From the NCBI GenBank assembly GCA_964561365.1, contig CAZLPF010000005.1, positions 1 through 55,825 of the forward strand: DNA of 55,825 nt, written 5' to 3'. Numbering within the stretch: the first letter of the stretch is position 1; each line of letters begins with the position of its first letter. Positions 40,103 through 50,486 of this stretch are shown here, piece by piece. The stretch is from an uncultured Candidatus Saccharibacteria bacterium (lineage in GTDB: Bacteria > Patescibacteriota > Doudnabacteria > UBA920). A model generated the notes under the pieces. That model ran no database searches, was not told where the DNA came from, and was given only the letters and a program-made list of their open reading frames with translations. The translations under genes were made by a program, and so were the position numbers.

Positions 40103-40372
40103 CTACTTTTTGACGAGCTTGCCAATGGCTTTCGCCATGCGGCTCTTCTTGCGGGAGGCGGTGTTCTTGTGAACCACGCCGCGCTTGGTGGCTTTGTCGA
40201 GAGCGGCCATGGCCTTCTTTAAGGCCTCGGCGGCTTCGCTCGCCTTGCCGGCGGCCACGAGCTTGCGGACTTCCTTGATGGCACTCTTCACCGCGTCCTT
40301 GCGGACGAGGTTGCGGGCGCGGCGGCGGATGTTTTGGCGCATGGCCTTCTGCGCCGACTTGGTGTTGGGCAT
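40103..40372 (-). CDS. rpsT: 30S ribosomal protein S20
   Basis: MPNTKSAQKAMRQ, VVHKNTASRKKSR. Confidence 0.97.
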   Translation of the reverse strand: MPNTKSAQKAMRQNIRRRARNLVRKDAVKSAIKEVRKLVAAGKASEAAEALKKAMAALDKATKRGVVHKNTASRKKSRMAKAIGKLVKK

Positions 40373-42883: not shown

Positions 42884-42942
42884 AGTGTGCCACACCATAC
42901 TATTTGCCCCGCGCGTTCGTCGAACGCGCGGGGCATGCTGTT

Positions 42943-43389
42943 TTATCGCCGTTTGTAGCGTCGGATCGGTCCGGCGTCCCACTGGGCAGTCAGGCTGAAT
43001 TTGTGGCCGTGGAGTGGGCCGGTAATCCACGAGAGGGTGAATTTTTCGCCGATCCTCAGCCATAAACCCCGCGCTACGGTTTTCCGCGGGCCGAGATTTA
43101 TGACCTGCTGCACCGTGCCAACATCCAGGCGGTGCGGCTTTTCTGTTCCCTCGGCGGGAACGAAAACGGTCAGCGATGACGAACAGCCCGTGAGCGTTCC
43201 CTGCGGCTGGCGTCTGGTATCGTCCCCCGCGCACGGCGCGGCGGTGGCGAGGTGCGGCTGCACCGCCTCCTGCATTCCGTGTGCCGCTGCCCCCCAAACG
43301 AGGGCCTGCTGCGCCGGCTGCGCACCTACAAAACCAGTGAAACAAACAACTGCCGTAACGGCGAGCAATACCCTCGTTAAAATTTTCAT
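42943..43389 (-). CDS. Secreted hypothetical protein (148 aa)
   Basis: Signal peptide MKILTRVLLAVTAVVCFTGFVGA. Confidence 0.65.
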   Translation of the reverse strand: MKILTRVLLAVTAVVCFTGFVGAQPAQQALVWGAAAHGMQEAVQPHLATAAPCAGDDTRRQPQGTLTGCSSSLTVFVPAEGTEKPHRLDVGTVQQVINLGPRKTVARGLWLRIGEKFTLSWITGPLHGHKFSLTAQWDAGPIRRYKRR

Positions 43390-43472
43390 ACGTGAACCCT
43401 ACACCTCGCCCCTGCTTCCGGCAAATGAAAAGGACCCGCGGCGTTGTGTAGCCGCGGATCCTATCGTGCAGT

Positions 43473-44087
43473 TTACCGGACGGTGTAGGCGAGCCCTACC
43501 CCGACGGTTTTTGTGGCGCTCCCCCGAAAGCGAACGGGGATGCCGTACTCGGCGAGAAAGGTCAGCTTGCCGACCGGTACGGCGATGCCGACTGGTACGT
43601 TCAGCACCGGATCGGGCGGCGTGAACAGCTTGCCGGCCGCTTGCCCGAGCGGAACCAGGCTGCTGAGGCCCACGTACGGAGAGTACGCGAACTTCTTTAC
43701 CTTCAGGTCCCAGCTCCCGAGCAGTGCCGCAAAGTAGGTAACCGCGCCGTCCCCCCGCCGGTTTACCGGGACATTCAGGAGCTGAAAAGTCCCCAGGTTT
43801 CCGTACTTCGATTTTATGAAGTTCACGTTGAACCCTGGTGTTGCGGTGAACTGCGTCCGGCCAGTCGTAGTTGTGTGCGTCACGCAACCGTAGGCATCAA
43901 CGCGGTTGTTGATGCCGTACGCCACGCAGCCGTAGCTGAATGCTACCTTCGGCAGGCCTTCGGTCAAAATCAGGTTCGGCCCAATGAAAGCCGTAACTTT
44001 GTCGGTACCCGAGGTCGTCGGGACGTTGAGCGTCTGCGCCTGGAGCGCGGCGGCGAGCATCGCCAAAAAAACCGTTTTCACGAACAT
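43473..44087 (-). CDS. Secreted beta-strand-rich protein (204 aa)
   Basis: Own RBS CAGGAGG, ATG 44087, signal peptide MFVKTVFLAMLAAALQA; alternating polar/hydrophobic strands; in frame with the upstream ORF. Confidence 0.7.
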   Translation of the reverse strand: MFVKTVFLAMLAAALQAQTLNVPTTSGTDKVTAFIGPNLILTEGLPKVAFSYGCVAYGINNRVDAYGCVTHTTTTGRTQFTATPGFNVNFIKSKYGNLGTFQLLNVPVNRRGDGAVTYFAALLGSWDLKVKKFAYSPYVGLSSLVPLGQAAGKLFTPPDPVLNVPVGIAVPVGKLTFLAEYGIPVRFRGSATKTVGVGLAYTVR

Positions 44088-44366
44088 GGTGTGTCCTCCT
44101 GTAACGTTTGGGAATCCAATTCCGGATTTCTGATGCGGCATCAGGCTCCCGGAAAGGGAGGGAAGCGCCCGGTAGAGGTGCTTCCCGAGGTTGGGGTCGA
44201 TGGCTGCTGCGGCGAGGCACAGCAGCAGGGCGATGGCCCACAGCACGAGCGCGTCGTGGAGGGCGGTCATCCGTTGCTGTTCGGTCGTTGCGCGCGTGTA
44301 GCGTACAGCATTCGAGAGAACCGCTGCCGCCATAAATATCCAAGAGAACCCTAGAAATACGAACAT
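44088..44366 (-). CDS. Small two-TM ORF with no stop, reading into the downstream gene
   Basis: RBS TAAGGAGG, ATG 44366; two hydrophobic segments; its 3' part is the repeated intergenic element. Confidence 0.5.
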
Positions 44367-44401
44367 GAGAACCTCCTTATGTGCAGCCTCTTTAGCGCTG
44401 G

Positions 44402-44665
44402 CTAGGCGTCGAGCGCTGGTAACCGCTCGGTGAATTTCTTTCCGCCGATGCGTCGGTAGTCAGCGGCGAGCGCGTCGTACCACCCGGGCAGCGTATTCCG
44501 CTCATCGATGCGACACTCGGTGAGCAGCTGCAGCGCCGCGCGCAGCTCTTGCGACCGGCCTCGGTTCAGGGTGGGGAAGCCGTCCTGTTTGTGGCACCAC
44601 ACCGTGCGGATCGCGTCGAGCAGCTGTTCGTAACCGCTGATTTTCATGCCAATTACCATGTACAT
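44402..44665 (-). CDS. Hypothetical protein (first gene of cassette 1)
   Basis: RBS AAGGAG after a sigma70 promoter; 87 aa. Confidence 0.65.
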   Translation of the reverse strand: MYMVIGMKISGYEQLLDAIRTVWCHKQDGFPTLNRGRSQELRAALQLLTECRIDERNTLPGWYDALAADYRRIGGKKFTERLPALDA

Positions 44666-44692
44666 GCCCTTCTCCTTTTTGTTTGAAGAGAC

Positions 44693-44827
44693 ATAGTACC
44701 ATAAAGAATCATTTAGGTCAATAAGTATGATTATTAAAGTTTAAAAAACTGTTTTATTTAAAAGATAAATTTAGATATACTTATAATAATCAAAAAAATT
44801 GACTAAGCACTTCATTTGCCATACCAT
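44693..44827. promoter_or_regulatory. Divergent sigma70 promoters with palindromic operator candidates (cassette 1)
   Basis: Minus: TTGACC-17-TACTAT. Plus: TTGACT-17-TACCAT. TCA-N7-TGA over both -35 boxes. Confidence 0.7.
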
Positions 44828-44833
44828 TAATGC

Positions 44834-45580
44834 ATGGAATTAACCGACGTTTTGCGTTCCGCCGGTCTCAGCGACAAAGAGGCGGCTGTTTACCTCGCGC
44901 TCCTCGAGCTCGGGCCGTCGACCGCCTACCGCATTGGTCCGAAGGCCAAACTGAAACGGCCGATAACCTACGTTGTTCTGGAGCAGCTACAGCGGCGGGG
45001 GTTGACCTCGGTGGTGCCCCAGGGCGACCGGAAGCTGTACGTCGCTTCAGAGCCGGGCAAGCTCCTCGGCGAGCTTGAGCACAGCCGTGAACTGTACAAG
45101 CGGTTCTTGCCGAACTTCGAAGCGCTCTACCAGAGCACCGAGGGGAAAGAGAAACCCCAGGTGCAGCTCTTTGAGGGTGACGAGGGCATCCGTCACGTCT
45201 ACGACGAGATCCTGAAAGCGCGCGAGGTCAGTTTTTTTGCGACAATCCGCGACTTCATGGAATTTTATCCGGAGTTTGCCGATGAGCTCATCGCGGGCGC
45301 GAACGCCGGCCGCCTGCGCGTGCGAGAAATTTTGAGCCAAAACCCTGCCGATCTCGCCTTCGCCGCGCGGGTTCGCGGAACCGCGAACTATGAGCATCGG
45401 CTCGCGCACGCCGGCAGCGAATTTCTGACGGACAACTGCCTGTTCTCGAACAAGGTGACTTTTTTTGCCTACCAGCCGTTCCGCTTCGCGGTCGTAATCT
45501 CGAGCAAGGCAATCTGCCAGTCCATAACCACGCTGTTCGAGCTGGCTTGGCGGGCCGCCACGCCGCTGGGCGAACGGTAG
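44834..45580 (+). CDS. TrmB-family winged-helix transcriptional regulator
   Basis: GLSDKEAAVYLALLELG...KLKRPITYVVLEQL, VQLFEGDEGI; C-terminal effector-like domain. Confidence 0.88.
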   Translation: MELTDVLRSAGLSDKEAAVYLALLELGPSTAYRIGPKAKLKRPITYVVLEQLQRRGLTSVVPQGDRKLYVASEPGKLLGELEHSRELYKRFLPNFEALYQSTEGKEKPQVQLFEGDEGIRHVYDEILKAREVSFFATIRDFMEFYPEFADELIAGANAGRLRVREILSQNPADLAFAARVRGTANYEHRLAHAGSEFLTDNCLFSNKVTFFAYQPFRFAVVISSKAICQSITTLFELAWRAATPLGER

Positions 45581-45595
45581 TTCGTACCGACCTTC

Positions 45596-45671
45596 TGTAC
45601 CTCCTCTGGGCACCCAACTGACTTGCGGTGCTCGGAGGAAGTGGGGAAGCGCGCGGCTTCCCCGAGGTTGT
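45596..45671 (-). repeat. Repeated intergenic element, copy E (no start codon follows)
   Basis: AACCTCGGGAAGC...GCTTCCCCACTTCC-hairpin-GAGGAGG. Confidence 0.6.
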
Positions 45672-46511
45672 TTATCCACCCGCTCTTTTCCAGGAGTGAG
45701 AGCTACCGAAGTAAGCGGTTCCGCCCTGGTGGAGGGGGTCGTGGATTTCCCCGAAGCGCGGCGTGCAGCCGTCTTTCCCGAGCAGTGGCAGGAATTCGAC
45801 CACGTCGAGCCCCGCGGCAGCGAACGCCCGCAGGTCCCGCCGCGGTCCGCCGCCTTTGTTGTGGGCGTCCGTCGCCGCTTGCCAGCGCCCTCCCGCGAGC
45901 TGGCCTGCGACAGCGTTCAACACGTCCCAGTCTTCTGTTCTCAAGGGGTGGTAGGCCGCGAGCTTCTTTTCAAGGGAGTAGGCGCACTGGTGCGGCCCCT
46001 CCCGCTCCACGAGCTCGCAGAACCACTGGCCGAGTTCGTTCATCCACCAGCTACCGAGCTTGCCGATGCAGGCGGCGACGAACACATCGTCCAGGAGCCA
46101 GTGGTTGATGCGTTCCGCGCCCTGCATCCAGTCTGTTGCTTTGCCCTGGTCCCACACGAGCTCGCGCTCGGTGGTATCGGCTGCGGTGGAGATGAGGAGC
46201 AGGTCTTCGAGCACGAGTGGTTCTTGTATGGCGCCAATCGTCCTCAGCAACTCCTTGCGGCAGCGCAGGAACAGCTCCTTGAGTGACGATTTCTGACGAA
46301 CGCGCTCGGAGCCGCTGTAGATAATGCCGACAGCGTTGGTAACGTCGGCGTCATCGGCGTGGCTCTTCGATGCCCACAGCGCCCGCTGTAGGACGTTGTA
46401 GTCGCGTGCGCTGAGCAGGGCCTCGGTGAGCCGCAGCCGAGCGACGGCATTTGCGAACGGGTAGGGCTCAATTGCCTTCCGCAGAGCTGCGGATTCATTT
46501 TCGTTTTTCAT
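45672..46511 (-). CDS. Hypothetical helical protein (279 aa)
   Basis: RBS CAGGAGG; no recognised motif. Confidence 0.7.
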   Translation of the reverse strand: MKNENESAALRKAIEPYPFANAVARLRLTEALLSARDYNVLQRALWASKSHADDADVTNAVGIIYSGSERVRQKSSLKELFLRCRKELLRTIGAIQEPLVLEDLLLISTAADTTERELVWDQGKATDWMQGAERINHWLLDDVFVAACIGKLGSWWMNELGQWFCELVEREGPHQCAYSLEKKLAAYHPLRTEDWDVLNAVAGQLAGGRWQAATDAHNKGGGPRRDLRAFAAAGLDVVEFLPLLGKDGCTPRFGEIHDPLHQGGTAYFGSSHSWKRAGG

Positions 46512-46623
46512 GTACGTATCCTCCTGGGGTTTCCTGTTTCCAGTCCGCTATGCATTGCGGCCTGGAAAGGGGAGGGAAGCTGGTCTGGGCAGGGTACCGG
46601 GCTTCCCGAGGGTTTGGTGGTCG
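46512..46623 (-). repeat. Repeated intergenic element, copy A
   Basis: CCCTCGGGAAGC...GCTTCCCTCCCCTTTCCAGG...AATGCATAG...CTGGAA...CAGGAGG. Confidence 0.75.
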
Positions 46624-47007
46624 TTAGTCCACGGTGACGTGCTCGAGCGCTCTGTCACCGAGGAGCTCTCGGACCGCGCCAACCAAGACTTTCACGTTCA
46701 GGCAATCGCCGAAGTTCGAGCCCCACCTGCGGAGGCGGAAACTCGCCTGGCCTTTACCGCGAACGGTGGCTTCGACGTCTTCCGGCTTCAGGCCTGCTTC
46801 CTCTACTGCCGCGACGACCGCGGTGACAATCCCAAATACCGGGCCGTAGAGCTGGGCCCCCGAGGGCATCGGGCTTCCGTTGTGGTAGTAGACGATCTGC
46901 AGGCACTCCAAACAGAAGCTCACTTCAACGAGCGCTACTCCGGTTTGGGTGTTTCCGTAGATGTGGCGCACGCGCGCACAGAAACGGTCAATCCTGGTCA
47001 TGGTCAC
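46624..47007 (-). CDS. Hypothetical protein (127 aa)
   Basis: RBS TAGGAGG 8 nt before GTG; contains CLEC. Confidence 0.65.
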   Translation of the reverse strand: MTMTRIDRFCARVRHIYGNTQTGVALVEVSFCLECLQIVYYHNGSPMPSGAQLYGPVFGIVTAVVAAVEEAGLKPEDVEATVRGKGQASFRLRRWGSNFGDCLNVKVLVGAVRELLGDRALEHVTVD

Positions 47008-47097
47008 TTACTGTTCCTCCTATGGTTCCAACGTTCAGCGAGCGAGCGCGTCGTTCGCTAAAAGAGAGAGGGAAGCTAGGCTTCCCTTGCGTTTCCG
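47008..47097 (-). repeat. Repeated intergenic element, copy D
   Basis: GGGAAGC-CTA-GCTTCCC TCTCTCTTTTAGCGA...TCGCTGAA CGTTGGAACC ATAGGAGG. Confidence 0.7.
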
Positions 47098-47388
47098 CTA
47101 TTCGCTAACGTCCGATTCCGGTTCACGGACCTCGTAGTGGGTGCCGGTCGTCGCCATGAGGGTCTGGTAGGCCTGCGCGGCGAGCGAGAGCGAGCCGACG
47201 ATGCTGGCCCGGCTGCTCCGGTTCTTCTCCATGCCGAGCTTGTCGGCGACCTCTTCCCACGTGGCGTGTTTGAATTCGGTCGAAAGCTCACAGTACGCGG
47301 CCACGATGCCCTTCGTCCGCTCGGTCATGTCGAGTTCGTTCGCACCTCGGCGGAGCGCGTCGGGTGAATACTTTTCATAAAGAGCCAT
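47098..47388 (-). CDS. Small hypothetical protein, possible HTH
   Basis: RBS CAGGAGG, ATG 47388; ATWEEVADKLGMEKNRSSRASI resembles an HTH. Confidence 0.65.
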   Translation of the reverse strand: MALYEKYSPDALRRGANELDMTERTKGIVAAYCELSTEFKHATWEEVADKLGMEKNRSSRASIVGSLSLAAQAYQTLMATTGTHYEVREPESDVSE

Positions 47389-47470
47389 GGTTCCTCCTGA
47401 AGGTTCCAACTTCCAGCCCGCTATGCATTTCGAGCTGGAAAAGGGAGGGGAGGTTTTATAAGCTTGCCAG
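47389..47470 (-). repeat. Repeated intergenic element, copy B (lacks first hairpin)
   Basis: CCCCTCCCTTTTCCAGCTCG-AAATGCATAG-CGGGCTGGAAGTTGGAACCTTCAGGAGG. Confidence 0.75.
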
Positions 47471-47490
47471 TTCGTTTTATTTGAAAAGAA

Positions 47491-47626
47491 ATAGTACCAT
47501 AAATGCGTATTAAGGTCAATAATACTGACTTAATAAAACTAAAAATTATCTTTTAAATAAAAGCTTTTTTCTATAATTAAACAATTTGTCAGAAATATTG
47601 ACAGAAAATGAAAATAAGAATATACT
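47491..47626. promoter_or_regulatory. Divergent sigma70 promoters with palindromic operator candidates (cassette 2)
   Basis: Minus: TTGACC-17-TACTAT. Plus: TTGACA-17-TATACT. GGTCA-N7-TGACT and TGTCA-N7-TGACA. Confidence 0.75.
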
Positions 47627-47632
47627 GTAAAT

Positions 47633-48394
47633 ATGGAAATTACTGAGGTTTTGGGACGGGCTGGGCTGGGTGAAAAAGAGGCGAGCGTTTACCTTGCCCT
47701 TTTAGAGCTGGGTACGTCGTCGGTAAACCCAGTTGCCGCAAAAGCCGGCATCAAGCGGCCGACGGCCTACCTCATACTCGACCAACTCAGCCACCAGGGG
47801 CTCGTCAGCGCAGTGCCGCACTCAAAGAAAGTCCTCTATACGGCCGAGAGTCCGGAGCGGATCCTTTCGGAAATGGGCAAGCGCGAGGAGCTGCTCAAGA
47901 GGTTCATGCCGAACCTGCTCGCCCTCTACAACGAGAAGAAAGAAAAGCCGCAGGTGCGGCTGTTCGAGGGGAAGGAAGGCATTGCCAAGGTTTACCAGCA
48001 CATCTACGCGGCCAAGACGGTAAACTTTTTCGGCACCGTGCGCGAGGCGCTCAAGTACGACCCCGAAGACTTGTGGGAGTTCGTTGAGCGTACCCACCGG
48101 GAAGCCATGCACGTGCGCGACCTCCTGTTCCGCACCCCGGAAGACTACGAGTACGCGAAGAAGGCTCGGAACAGCAAGAACTACCAGATCCGTTTTCTGC
48201 CCGAAAGCACGAGGGTCATGACCGACAACGCCATTTTCGGGGACTCCATAGCGTTCTTTTCTTTCCACCCGCAAATTTTTGCGGTGGTCATTGAGAGCCG
48301 CGAGATTGCGGCGGCGGTGCGCTCCCTCTACGAGCTCGCGTGGGCCGGGGCCGAACCGCTCGAGGCGGTGCTCGGGTCGCAGTCCGTCAAATAA
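47633..48394 (+). CDS. TrmB-family winged-helix transcriptional regulator (paralog of 44834)
   Basis: GLGEKEASVYLALLELG...GIKRPTAYLILDQL, KPQVRLFEGKEGI. Confidence 0.88.
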   Translation: MEITEVLGRAGLGEKEASVYLALLELGTSSVNPVAAKAGIKRPTAYLILDQLSHQGLVSAVPHSKKVLYTAESPERILSEMGKREELLKRFMPNLLALYNEKKEKPQVRLFEGKEGIAKVYQHIYAAKTVNFFGTVREALKYDPEDLWEFVERTHREAMHVRDLLFRTPEDYEYAKKARNSKNYQIRFLPESTRVMTDNAIFGDSIAFFSFHPQIFAVVIESREIAAAVRSLYELAWAGAEPLEAVLGSQSVK

Positions 48395-48425
48395 AAATCC
48401 CCGCCACTGGCGGGGATTTTTATTT
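48389..48425. terminator. Bidirectional terminator-like palindrome with CCGCCA-C-TGGCGG core
   Basis: 18-bp perfect arms overlapping both stop codons. Confidence 0.8.
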
Positions 48426-50486
48426 CTTGATTCGCTTCTTACCCGAGAGCTTCGCGAGCTTCTTGACCTCCGCGATGCGGTCGCGGATTTGGGCCGCCGT
48501 TTCAAACTCCAAGTTCCGCGAGGACAGATCCATTTGCTCGCCGAGCTCTTCGAGGTAGAAGCGGACTTCGTCACCCGAGAGCCTCGAGACGTCGACATCG
48601 GCGTGCGCAAAGTACTCGGGTTCTACCGCCGCTTTGCTGCCGGCCAGGCGCGAGTCCTGAATGCGCTTCCGAATAGACTGCGGGGTAATGCCGTGGTCGG
48701 CGTTGTACTGCTCTTGAACTTTGCGCCGCCGGGTCGTTTCGTCTATGGCCGCCTGCATGGACCGGGTAACGCGGTCGGCGTAGAGGACCGCGTGGCCCCC
48801 GAGGTGGCGGGCGGCGCGGCCCATCATTTGCATGAAGAAGGTTTCACTGCGGAGGAACCCCTCTTTGTCGGCGTCGAGTATGGCTACGAGCGAGACTTCG
48901 GGAAGGTCGAGCCCCTCGCGGAGGAGGTTGATGCCGACCAGTACGTCGTAGACCCCGAGGCGCAGGTCGCGGAGAATCTCGAGCCGGTCGAACGTTTCCA
49001 CGTCCGAGTGGATGTAGGCGACCTTGATGTTCGCCTCTTTCAGGTACTCGGTCAGCTCTTCGGCCATGCGCTTGGTCAGCGTGGCAACGAGCACGCGCTC
49101 GTGCGCGGCAATGCGTTCGCGGATGCGTTCGCCGAGGTCGTCGACCTGGTTCTTTATGGGCTTTATCTCAATGGTCGGATCGAGGAGCCCCGTGGGCCGG
49201 ACAATCTGTTCGAGCACGGCCGGGGTTTTCTTGAGGCTCGCCTCGCTCACCGACTTGCCCTTGGCATCGACGTTCTCGGCCAGGCTCTTACGGATTTCGT
49301 ACGGCGCCGGCGTGGCTGAAACGTACACCGCCTGGCCGACCTTGCCCTCGAACTCTGAAAACCTGAGGGGGCGGTTGTCGAGCGCGCTCGGCAGGCGGAA
49401 GCCGTAGTCGACGAGGTTCATTTTCCGCGAGCGGTCGCCCTCGTACATGGCGCCGATCTGCGGAATAGTCTGGTGCGACTCGTCTATGAACAGCAGGAAG
49501 TCGTCGGGGAAGTAGTCAATGAGCGTGGATGGCGGCTCGCCCACGCTTCGGCCGTCGAGGTGCCTCGAGTAGTTCTCAATGCCGGCCACGAAGCCGGTGT
49601 TCGTGAGCATCTCGAGGTCGAAGTTCGTGCGCTGCTCGAGCCGCGCGGCTTCTAAAATTTTCCCTTCGCCCCGCAGCACGTTCAGCCGCTCGGCGAGCTC
49701 TTCGCGGACCTTTTCAGCCGCTTCTTTGAGCTGCTCTTCGGGGGCCACGAAGTGCTTCGCCGGAAAAATGGTGAACCCAGGAAGCTCCTCGAGAATTTTC
49801 CGGCTCACCGCGTCCTGGCGCTCTATTTTTTCAATCTCGTCGCCGAAGAACTCGAGGCGGATGACCGTGTCTTCGGACGAGAGGATAATTTCGACGGTGT
49901 CGCCCTGGGCGCGGAACGTGCCGCGGTGGAGGTCCACGTCGTTGCGCTGGTACTGCAGGTCGGTCAGGCGGCGGAGGAGCTTGTCGCGCTTCACGCTCTG
50001 GCCACGCTTGAGTTCGAAGGACAGGTCGAGGTAGTTGGCCGGGTTGCCGAGGCCGTAGATGCAGGAGACCGAAGCCACAATGAGCACGTCGCGTCGCGAG
50101 AGCAGGGCCTGGGTCGCGGCGTTCCTGAGGCGGTCAATTTCTTCGTTGATTTGCGTTTCCTTTTCAATGTAGGTGTCCGAGCGGGGGATGTAGGCCTCGG
50201 GCTGGTAGTAGTCGTAGTAGGAAACGAAGTAGTGGACCGCGTTATCGGGGAAAAATTCTTGGAACTCGCTCGCGAGCTGGGCGGCGAGCGTTTTGTTGTG
50301 GCAAATGACGAGCGTCGGCTTCTGGAGCTTTTCCACGACGTTGGCCATGGTAAAGGTCTTGCCCGAGCCCGTGACCCCGAGGAGCGTTTGGTGCTTGCGG
50401 CCCGCGGCGAGCGAAGCCACGAGCCCGGTAATGGCCCGCGGCTGATCGCCGGACGGCTCAAACGGTGAAGAAATCTTGAAATCCAT
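48420..50486 (-). CDS. uvrB: Excinuclease ABC subunit B
   Basis: [38 protein letters not shown]-terminal UVR coil. Confidence 0.99.

Follow-up and report, generated by a model that had tools for sequence, protein, structure and literature searches.

A 55,825-nucleotide stretch of DNA from an uncultured bacterium of the Patescibacteria (contig CAZLPF010000005.1, positions 1-55,825; hereafter the window) carries two TrmB-family genes, trmB1 and trmB2, each facing a set of small genes on the opposite strand that we refer to as its cargo. Results of our analysis indicate that these are likely to be two copies of a conserved, local, autoregulated repressor module, which would consist of a TrmBL2-like protein and a back-to-back promoter region of fixed length. 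An earlier note on the same DNA, made from the sequence alone, had described two TrmB genes, each divergent from small minus-strand open reading frames (ORFs). This was confirmed, as PF01978 was found in both products and AT-rich gaps (44666-44833 and 47410-47632) separate each trmB gene from the minus-strand ORFs in otherwise GC-rich surroundings. In the ORF list of the window, the two-module stretch is flanked by rpsT (40103-40372) and uvrB (48420-50486). The window is contig C5 of an assembly of 1.02 Mb (38 contigs, 62% G+C); homologues of its proteins bear the record names Candidatus Doudnabacteria and Patescibacteria group bacterium, and near-identical DNA is contained in wastewater and activated-sludge runs. 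The regulator genes, their promoters and the dyads within them, designated O_L on the cargo side and O_R on the regulator side, are as follows (aa, amino acids).

44681-44732, minus strand: cargo promoter 1; -10 TGGTACTAT at 44693-44701, -35 TTGACC at 44716-44721; predicted start ~44684-44686, then an A-rich leader
44716-44732, minus strand: dyad O_L1, AATCATACTTATTGACC, in cargo promoter 1
44751-44764, no strand: central AT-rich dyad 1 (GTTTTATTTAAAAG), halfway from O_L1 to O_R1
44788-44833, plus strand: trmB1 promoter; -35 TTGACT at 44799-44804, 17-nt spacer, -10 TACCAT at 44822-44827; predicted start at the A of ATG 44834
44788-44804, plus strand: dyad O_R1, AATCAAAAAAATTGACT, in the trmB1 promoter
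44834-45580, plus strand: trmB1, 248-aa TrmBL2-like regulator; groups with the copies of genus g20
47479-47530, minus strand: cargo promoter 2; -10 TGGTACTAT at 47491-47499, -35 TTGACC at 47514-47519; predicted start ~47482-47484, then AAAUAAAAC
47514-47530, minus strand: dyad O_L2, AGTCAGTATTATTGACC, in cargo promoter 2
47550-47563, no strand: central AT-rich dyad 2 (CTTTTAAATAAAAG)
47587-47632, plus strand: trmB2 promoter; -35 TTGACA at 47598-47603, 17-nt spacer, -10 TATACT at 47621-47626; predicted start at the A of ATG 47633
47587-47603, plus strand: dyad O_R2, TGTCAGAAATATTGACA, in the trmB2 promoter
47633-48394, plus strand: trmB2, 253-aa TrmBL2-like regulator; vertical orthologue, 86% identical to the copy on the related contig L073

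In each gap, a 17-bp dyad with the pattern (T/A)GTCA-N7-TGAC(A/T) encloses the -35 hexamer of each of the two near-consensus sigma-70 promoters. The cargo promoters are both of sigma-70 type (TTGACC, 17 nt, TACTAT with TGG before it). Since both trmB -10 boxes end 6 nt ahead of the ATG, +1 would be the A of the start codon and the trmB mRNAs are predicted to be leaderless. The same spacing rule gives the cargo starts listed above and places the pyrimidine tract of these promoters in the discriminator, and the transcribed part of the tract is accordingly predicted to be CAAACAAAAA or CAAAUAAAAC only. A promoter motif common to the two minus strands had been pointed out in the earlier note, and we found it at both gaps: its part TTATTGACCT lies at 44715-44724 and 47513-47522, and its part TTTATGGTACTAT, an extended -10, at 44693-44705 and 47491-47503, followed by TCTCTTCAAA and TCTTTTCAAA at the two sites. 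In the whole 1.02-Mb genome, the full motif, and likewise the core TTGACC-N14-TGGTACTAT, occurs at these two sites only. However, the generic frame TTGAC-N14-TGnTAnnnT has 34 sites and is the genome's common promoter form, so part of the likeness between the two promoters is the organism's own promoter consensus. As TTATTGACC equals the -35 box plus half of the 17-bp dyad, and TCTYTTCAAA covers the predicted start site and A-rich leader, the motif is, as read from the sequence, the promoter-proximal half of the putative operator O_L together with the -35, the extended -10, the discriminator and the first A-rich bases of the leader.

We compared 24 orthologous loci in ~20 genera and counted the dyads over 146 genomes of the order. 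TrmB-like proteins (~250 aa) are strongly expanded in relatives, with up to 15 per genome of ~1 Mb, and the orthologous group of TrmB2 is 44-62% identical across genera and mostly single-copy. In the orthologous loci, an O_R dyad, TGTCAA-N5-(C/T)TGACA (TGTCA-N7-TGACA in its shorter form), lies over the -35 box of the regulator; its GTCA half is kept in 24/24 loci and its TGAC half in 23/24, the half outside the promoter included. An O_L dyad, AGTCA-N7-TGACT, lies over the -35 box of the divergent promoter, and the bases G, T, C and A of its distal half-site are kept in 21, 23, 18 and 20 of the 24 loci. From the start of O_L to that of O_R, 23/24 loci measure 72-74 bp. Also common to these loci are an extended -10 box and a less pronounced central AT-rich dyad (CTTT-N6-AAAG); an A-rich tract, GTTAAAACAAAAA or TTTCAAAATAAAA, opens the cargo transcript, and in most of them 29 nt separate the end of O_R from the ATG, again placing +1 on its A. 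The strict form of the O_R dyad was found in 46 of the 146 genomes, in single copy in 44, while the reversed control pattern was found in 2. At least 42 of the 48 strict sites adjoin a TrmB-family gene. Of 20 sites that we fetched in addition to the 24 loci, at least 18 adjoin such a gene and have the same layout.

Within the genome itself, the loose dyad GTCA-N7-TGAC occurs at 8 sites, which equals the chance expectation, and only the two sites of module 2 are intergenic with AT-rich spacers. A wider regulon was rejected, as the other sites are GC-rich, coding and at chance frequency; considering these counts, the regulator looks local. A third TrmB gene is truncated by the end of contig C30, and its upstream region differs and is not AT-rich. 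Just upstream of it (C30:6400-6900) lies a GC-rich, seemingly structured noncoding stretch behind a consensus promoter. Variation between strains was also informative. A metatranscriptome contig from a related strain has nine substitutions in the 168-bp gap of module 1, all of them outside the dyads, the -10 and -35 boxes and the leader; by our own estimate, the chance that 9/9 would miss these elements is ~0.001 if substitutions were evenly spread. Strain differences in the trmB genes are all synonymous (6/6 single-nucleotide polymorphisms, SNPs).

The earlier note had proposed a modular platform for variable cargo under a ligand-responsive regulator. The modular part stands, in that the regulator and control region are conserved over the 24 loci while the facing genes change, whereas ligand responsiveness gained no support. 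Thus the architecture is neither confined to this genome nor tied to a fixed cargo order: 24 loci share the layout and the cargo varies. The first divergent gene differs among genera, encoding beta-barrel-like secreted proteins, another secreted family, NMT1-type ABC binding proteins, orphans, a 232-240 aa protein accompanied by genes for PEP-utilising enzymes, or a DUF3865 protein. Genome G142 likewise carries the module twice, with four different small orphans opposite each copy. A search of the literature on TrmB together with Patescibacteria or the candidate phyla radiation (CPR) found no paper.

Some relatives show variations on the layout. Contig L076 (G062:C46) encodes, at a distance of 2.8 kb from the orthologous module, a more remote TrmB paralogue that has TGTCA-N7-TGACA on its promoter and faces an unrelated 341-aa gene; this suggests that the dyad type is common to paralogues. 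At six loci (L024, L027, L028, L032, L034 and L035), a repeat-like insert of 75-140 bp (e.g., GGATCCCGG...CCGGGATGACAA) lies between the trmB promoter and the ATG and thereby creates a leader in those relatives. Two of them, L027 (G010) and L034 (G024), also have a 215-232-aa ORF between trmB and uvrB with the N-terminus NRDYK..YH.[YF]NRGN..Q.IF, which we take, by eye, to be a candidate relative of IS200/REP-associated tyrosine transposases.

Both regulators contain the TrmB winged helix-turn-helix (wHTH) domain PF01978 (E 2.4e-13 and 1.2e-13; scores of 50-51 bits, cut-off 25.6), they are 44% identical to each other, and, among 392 homologues, PF01978 was present in every one listed. An AlphaFold (AF2) model of TrmB2 built from 40 sequences (pLDDT 88) predicts a wHTH, a long helix at residues 75-100 that would serve as dimerisation helix, and an alpha/beta, PLD-like C-terminal domain. 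Its best fold match is TrmBL2 (5bpd, E 2.5e-14), followed by TrmB (3qph). Taken by itself, the modelled C-terminal domain resembles the N-subdomain of the sugar-binding domain of TrmB (2f5t_X; root-mean-square deviation 3.5 over 143 columns) as well as the PLD nucleases NucT and Nuc, while the sequence profile reaches 3qph and TrmBL2 via the N-terminal part only. Tyr46, invariant in 40 sequences, aligns with Tyr50 of Pyrococcus furiosus TrmB (3qph), its DNA-recognition residue (PMC4158304); the adjacent residue is Leu here and D51 in the archaeal protein. The C-terminal sugar-binding subdomain (~70 residues of the full PF11495 effector domain) is missing: no match to PF11495 was obtained, and the proteins end at 248 and 253 aa, where TrmBL2 ends. 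TrmBL2 and TrmBL3 likewise are without the C-terminal ~70 residues that hold the sugar site (PMC4158304). Scores against the NCBIfam TrmB/TrmBL1 equivalogs were 19-34 bits (cut-offs 500-650), and a PADLOC scan of the regulators gave weak wHTH-type matches only. By domain, modelled fold and recognition residue, the regulators are therefore assigned to the TrmB family, TrmBL2 architectural type, and are placed outside its sugar-sensing subgroup, so the ligand-responsive repressor of the earlier note was not borne out in this form. Ligand control via the PLD-like domain is possible, with no conserved feature here in its support.

Taken together, these observations suggest the following mechanism. 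Dimers of the regulator would bind O_R in its own promoter and O_L in the cargo promoter and, once bound, would occlude the -35 boxes, so that the regulator represses both itself and the divergent genes. The spacing of 73 +/- 1 bp, i.e., seven helical turns, would allow binding that is probably cooperative, either as a tetramer or with the AT-rich centre looped out between the two sites, and repression would be lifted by a signal for which the PLD-like domain is a possible sensor. Such an arrangement resembles TetR-tetA, in which regulator and target are also head-to-head with operators over both promoters in a short gap and, as inferred here, repression lasts until a signal arrives. It differs in the TrmB wHTH, in operators phased 73 bp apart rather than adjacent, in the leaderless regulator mRNA and in the variable cargo. 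Head-to-head repressor/target units are common, and the module is a variant of this familiar repressor-operator arrangement, not a new principle.

Several points weigh against this interpretation. In module 1, the distal half-sites are both ATCA/TGAT, and L073 and L074, the closest relatives, have degenerate versions of O_L (CGTTATAACCATTGACT and TGTTACTGTAGTTGACC); control of the cargo promoter is therefore less secure than autoregulation. Low-depth contigs from the metatranscriptomes X8, X9, X11 and X13 cover not only the genes but also the promoter gaps, which probably reflects DNA carry-over and makes these data uninformative on start sites and expression levels. That the regulator represses, rather than activates, is deduced only from the position of the sites and the quality of the promoters, and the boundaries of the insertion that we propose below for the history of the locus depend on alignments at 65-77% identity. 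Finally, TrmBL2 is an abundant, chromatin-like protein of archaea with low sequence specificity (PMC4158304).

This last point leads to a different explanation, which we regard as unlikely, namely that the protein is a general DNA-coating protein like TrmBL2, or an activator, and that the dyads are bound by another factor or belong to promoter architecture. The large number of TrmB-like genes in the small genomes of relatives would be consistent with it. So would the central dyad, weakly conserved and ~72-75 bp upstream of both predicted starts, which is a position typical of class I activators. The best fold match also points this way, as TrmBL2 binds coding and intergenic DNA and compacts DNA (PMC4158304). 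Likeness to TrmBL2 (Thermococcus kodakarensis TK0471 and P. furiosus PF0496; 5bpd, 5box, 5bqt) extends to the wHTH, long helix, PLD-like domain, length of ~250-264 aa, missing sugar-site residues and conserved DNA-recognition tyrosine. In contrast to that archaeal protein of little specificity (PMC4158304), the protein described here is bacterial, only 16-18% identical, and tied to one conserved pair of 17-bp dyads per genome in a divergent, apparently autoregulated unit. Indeed, dyads and regulator genes are paired approximately one to one, with a single strict dyad per genome. In addition, the half-site resembles that of the Thermococcales glycolytic motif (TGM), the 17-bp operator (TATCAC-N5-GTGATA) of the sequence-specific TrmBL1/Tgr, a protein that can sit on promoters and autoregulate (PMC4158304). 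Length and spacing of the dyad are the same, and the TGM half-site TATCA, set against TGTCA or AATCA here, is one base off TGTCA and equals the ATCA/TGAT half-sites of module 1. TrmBL1 differs in having a full effector domain that responds to maltose, maltotriose and fructose, a many-gene sugar regulon and archaeal TATA/BRE promoters, whereas the module has no sugar subdomain, bacterial sigma-70 promoters and a single target locus. Lastly, near-consensus promoters with 17-bp spacers and a TGn extension lead one to expect repression, not activation.

The remaining genes, intercistronic elements and terminators of the two modules are arranged as follows (SD, Shine-Dalgarno sequence; UTR, untranslated region).

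42943-43389, minus strand: c1_148, 148-aa orphan with a signal-peptide-like N-terminus
43431-43462, minus strand: terminator-like hairpin (12 bp, tail TTTCATTTGC) after c1_sec
43473-44087, minus strand: c1_sec, 204-aa secreted protein, predicted 10-12-stranded membrane beta-barrel
44088-44366, minus strand: c1_memb, ORF encoding two hydrophobic helices, preceded by a strong SD
44112-44189, minus strand: two-hairpin element upstream of the c1_sec SD (R1 match, E 1e-16)
44402-44665, minus strand: c1_87, 87-aa orphan, first gene behind cargo promoter 1
45642-45664, no strand: hairpin GGGGAAGC-N5-GCTTCCCC between the convergent ends of trmB1 and c2_279
45672-46511, minus strand: c2_279, 279-aa protein of a very rare family
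46529-46610, minus strand: two-hairpin element upstream of c2_279 (R1 match, E 7.6e-19); hairpin-B loop AAUGCAUA
46624-47007, minus strand: c2_127, ~127-aa orphan; GTG at 47007, 7 nt after its SD
47024-47089, minus strand: two-hairpin element upstream of c2_127 (R1 match, E 1.2e-20)
47098-47388, minus strand: c2_103, 96-aa orphan; ATG 47388 behind AGGAGGA; first gene behind cargo promoter 2
47402-47471, minus strand: partial two-hairpin element (no hairpin A) in the ~96-nt 5' UTR of c2_103 (R1 match, E 4.9e-12); hairpin-B loop AAAUGCAUAG
48395-48422, no strand: bidirectional terminator hairpin AAAAATCCCCGCCACTGGCGGGGATTTTT, common to trmB2 and uvrB, as read from the sequence

Phylogenetic analysis placed TrmB2 beside the one copy that each of the two closest contigs, L073 and L074, carries (support 100/99), and TrmB1, on a long branch, with genus g20 (support 100/99). 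The tree thus ruled out a recent duplication of trmB within the genome; of the paralogy claimed in the earlier note, the presence of two TrmB genes stood, but they are not recent paralogues, being grouped with different genera. L073 and L074 each have one module, in the order polA, rpsT, a 225-aa secreted protein, a c1_sec homologue, TrmB and uvrB. When the window was compared with L073 by blastn, 47549-50231 (uvrB, trmB2 and the right half of gap 2) and 43475-44102 (c1_sec) aligned, while 44103-47548 had no counterpart. From this comparison, the module is apparently ancestral beside uvrB, where it would have driven a small, beta-barrel-like secreted protein, and a block of ~3.4 kb is seen as inserted between c1_sec and its old promoter, bringing in a xenologous TrmB1 and five orphan ORFs. 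Since the L073 leader, CTTTCAAATAAAAC, matches the leader of cargo promoter 2, c2_103, c2_127 and c2_279 are today probably driven by the former cargo promoter, and the former cargo gene, c1_sec, has probably come to lie behind the promoter that arrived with TrmB1. The two cargo promoters have the derived states TTGACC and TACTAT in common, which suggests duplication or conversion within the genome. The recognition helix of the TrmB1 clade reads I-T/A-Y-V-V-L-E, as opposed to T-T/A-Y-L-I-L-D, and the outer operator bases are also changed; these changes fit, but do not prove, insulation between the two modules.

No detectable similarity exists between the two sets of cargo, in agreement with the earlier note, which had called them entirely different. 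Its proposal of a role in host interaction or defence found no support, as the cargo proteins gave no usable match to Pfam, NCBIfam, PADLOC or PHROGs, nor to PDB sequences. c1_sec, judged by its distribution, is the apparent ancestral cargo of the locus: homologues of 204 aa with 59% identity are neighbours of TrmB in L073, L074, L040, L042, L026 and L041. Structure prediction combined with Foldseek, which had been proposed for the cargo, was carried out for c1_sec (AF2, pLDDT 78.6), and the matches listed were transmembrane beta-barrels (e.g., NanC/KdgM, OmpX, FapF and the intimin beta-domain), at TM-scores of 0.3-0.5. The lineage is generally thought to be without an outer membrane, and membrane beta-barrel-like proteins are hence unexpected. 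A profile search of the genome contigs with the c1_sec alignment yielded no confirmed relative. In many relatives, the position of c1_sec is taken by its homologues or by comparable small secreted beta-rich proteins, and several different families of this kind occupy the interval between rpsT and TrmB.

Among the remaining genes of module 1, c1_148 may be a separate transcription unit, lying behind the terminator-like hairpin; it has no similarity to the 225-aa protein at the same position in L073. Near its 3' end (window 42960), a related strain in run X8 has an in-frame insertion of 12 nt. It is uncertain whether c1_memb is a real gene, as it continues in frame, with no stop, through a hairpin element into c1_sec, and the gene caller gives a 297-aa fusion (P0001), compared with 204 aa in homologues. 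Strain differences in c1_87 are 4 synonymous and 7 non-synonymous, suggesting that it is fast-evolving or free of protein-level constraint. In module 2, a word-based homology search with c2_279 returned the query itself only, and an exhaustive search of 1.84 billion representative proteins gave one true homologue (P0125, 45% identity), which is encoded head-to-head with a TrmB gene (L099). A distant homologue in G010 (L027) is also part of a TrmB-divergent operon; thus all three known members of the family sit in such operons. The SD of the L099 homologue has AUGCAUA shortly ahead of it. c2_127 is weakly like a cargo protein of G142 (E 0.007 in a very small database).

A structured, two-hairpin element forms what is, from sequence comparison, a putative second conserved layer of the modules. 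Before each internal cargo cistron, the order is hairpin A (GGGAAGC/GCUUCCC; consensus GGGRAG), a CU-rich linker (UCCCUUUYC), hairpin B, GGAA repeats (GAAAAUUGGAAA in the consensus) and the SD. In an alignment of nine copies, 95% of cells pair (shuffles, 82%; slid controls, 41-67%), and compensatory changes are seen in seven pairs, although the structure was derived from the same sequences. The same element separates orphans in both G142 modules (L077 and L078), and a covariance model found it in 51/146 genomes, with E-values down to 1e-20 in genomes outside the model set. Of the strong matches, approximately half closely follow the first cargo gene, at a distance of 0.5-1 kb from a TrmB-family gene, and the others closely precede other small genes. 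This model was far more informative than the exact stem pattern GGGAAGC...GCTTCCC, which was rejected as an order-wide marker: its enrichment over the reversed control was modest and came partly from common terminator-like hairpins. Nothing relevant came from Rfam, whether the whole window was searched with the gathering scores as threshold or 42900-47700 with E <= 1 (only a chance P13 match, E 0.9). A CCUCC tract in the element can pair with the SD, and the hairpin A and tail (CTCTCTTTTA) of the c2_127 copy score terminator-like, the only copy to do so; attenuation, SD sequestration or RNA processing are possible functions. The GAUGCAUAG loop of the module elements recurs elsewhere in the genome (C4:16300-16620, minus strand), in a hairpin of a long, structured 5' UTR that follows the end of a uvrA-like gene and precedes a ~270-aa orphan.

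These elements invite two further ideas. Conceivably, although we would not put much weight on it, regulator, rigid two-operator promoter and hairpin leader could together form a portable landing pad of the Patescibacteria in which foreign or new genes, each with its own hairpin leader, are stacked behind a promoter held closed by the resident regulator. If so, new genes would arrive already silenced and doubly gated, in transcription by the dyads and in translation or read-through by the SD-complementary hairpin, and whole modules could move between lineages via recombination in the control region, which would explain the arrival of TrmB1. An integron-like variant, in which the two-hairpin elements themselves are recombination sites for the insertion of orphan cassettes at the TrmB-controlled promoter, is improbable. 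The block inserted relative to L073 is indeed bordered by copies of the element (44112-44189 and 47402-47471), unrelated orphans are separated by it both here and in G142, and the cargo varies among genera. However, no integrase is nearby, the single tyrosine recombinase of the genome (PF00589) being on contig C2, outside the window. The element separates cargo ORFs, yet also occurs elsewhere as a single leader: the half of the strong matches that lie away from TrmB genes are mostly just upstream of an SD and start codon, a placement that fits a leader or intercistronic RNA better than a recombination site. Its conserved linear motifs and SD-complementary tract are also unlike attC sites.

It seems very unlikely that the promoter likeness is a mere trace of recent duplication or gene conversion, added to the general promoter consensus and devoid of regulatory meaning. 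The common TTGAC-N14-TGnTAnnnT frame, the presence in both promoters of TTGACC and TACTAT, which are absent from most relatives, and the identity of the promoter segments (72% over 71 nt, against 44% for the regulators as proteins) would all be explained in this way. Such a trace would not account for a layout, non-promoter half-sites and 73-bp phasing that have persisted in 24 loci across ~20 genera while the genes beside them diverged to 44-60% identity, for the association of a single dyad with the regulator in 46 genomes, or for strain substitutions that avoid these elements.

Least probable of all is boxA/Nus antitermination, in which the UCU(C/U)UUCAAA tract would load NusB/NusE for read-through of the cargo hairpin elements, as the earlier note had envisaged. 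NusB is encoded on contig C12 (PF01029, E 5.2e-35), the tract of module 1, GUCUCUUCAAACA, has CUCUU and ACA in common with boxA, and, like the rrn site, the tracts are pyrimidine-then-A-rich and near the transcript start. Furthermore, one element hairpin (47069-47087, tail CUCUCUUUUA) scores terminator-like, and the pyrimidine-rich element tail UCCCUUUUC makes leaky termination conceivable. However, the rRNA boxA of this genome is GCTCTTTGACA, and its 16S leader carries the canonical boxA, GGCTCTTTGACAGC, ~175 nt upstream of 16S (C6:454, minus strand); the tracts GTCTCTTCAAACA and TTCTTTTCAAATA differ from it, module 2 matching at ~5/10 positions. (The rRNA leader promoter is TTGACA-17-TAACAT, and the 16S gene runs off the contig end.) Orthologous promoters keep the A-rich run (GTTAAAACAAAAA or TTTCAAAATAAAA) in place of a CUCUUU core, the predicted +1, 7 nt after the -10, overlaps the tract and leaves UCUCUU untranscribed in the discriminator, and in module 1, L073, L074, L024 and L041 the SD follows directly on the tract, and no hairpin lies downstream. 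One copy of the element alone is terminator-like. Our reading of the element requires no antitermination, and neither the boxA-like tract nor antitermination through the hairpins was upheld.

To our knowledge, gene control in the CPR/Patescibacteria is almost unknown, and no bacterium of this order has been grown alone. The module offers a precise, testable cis-regulatory code, consisting of two 17-bp dyads with fixed phasing, consensus sigma-70 promoters and a predicted leaderless regulator mRNA, and it points to what these cells may regulate, namely membrane beta-barrel-like secreted proteins, uptake proteins and lineage-restricted orphans. The regulator can be expressed in E. coli, and if the operators act as proposed, the control region could provide a switchable promoter for CPR genetics.

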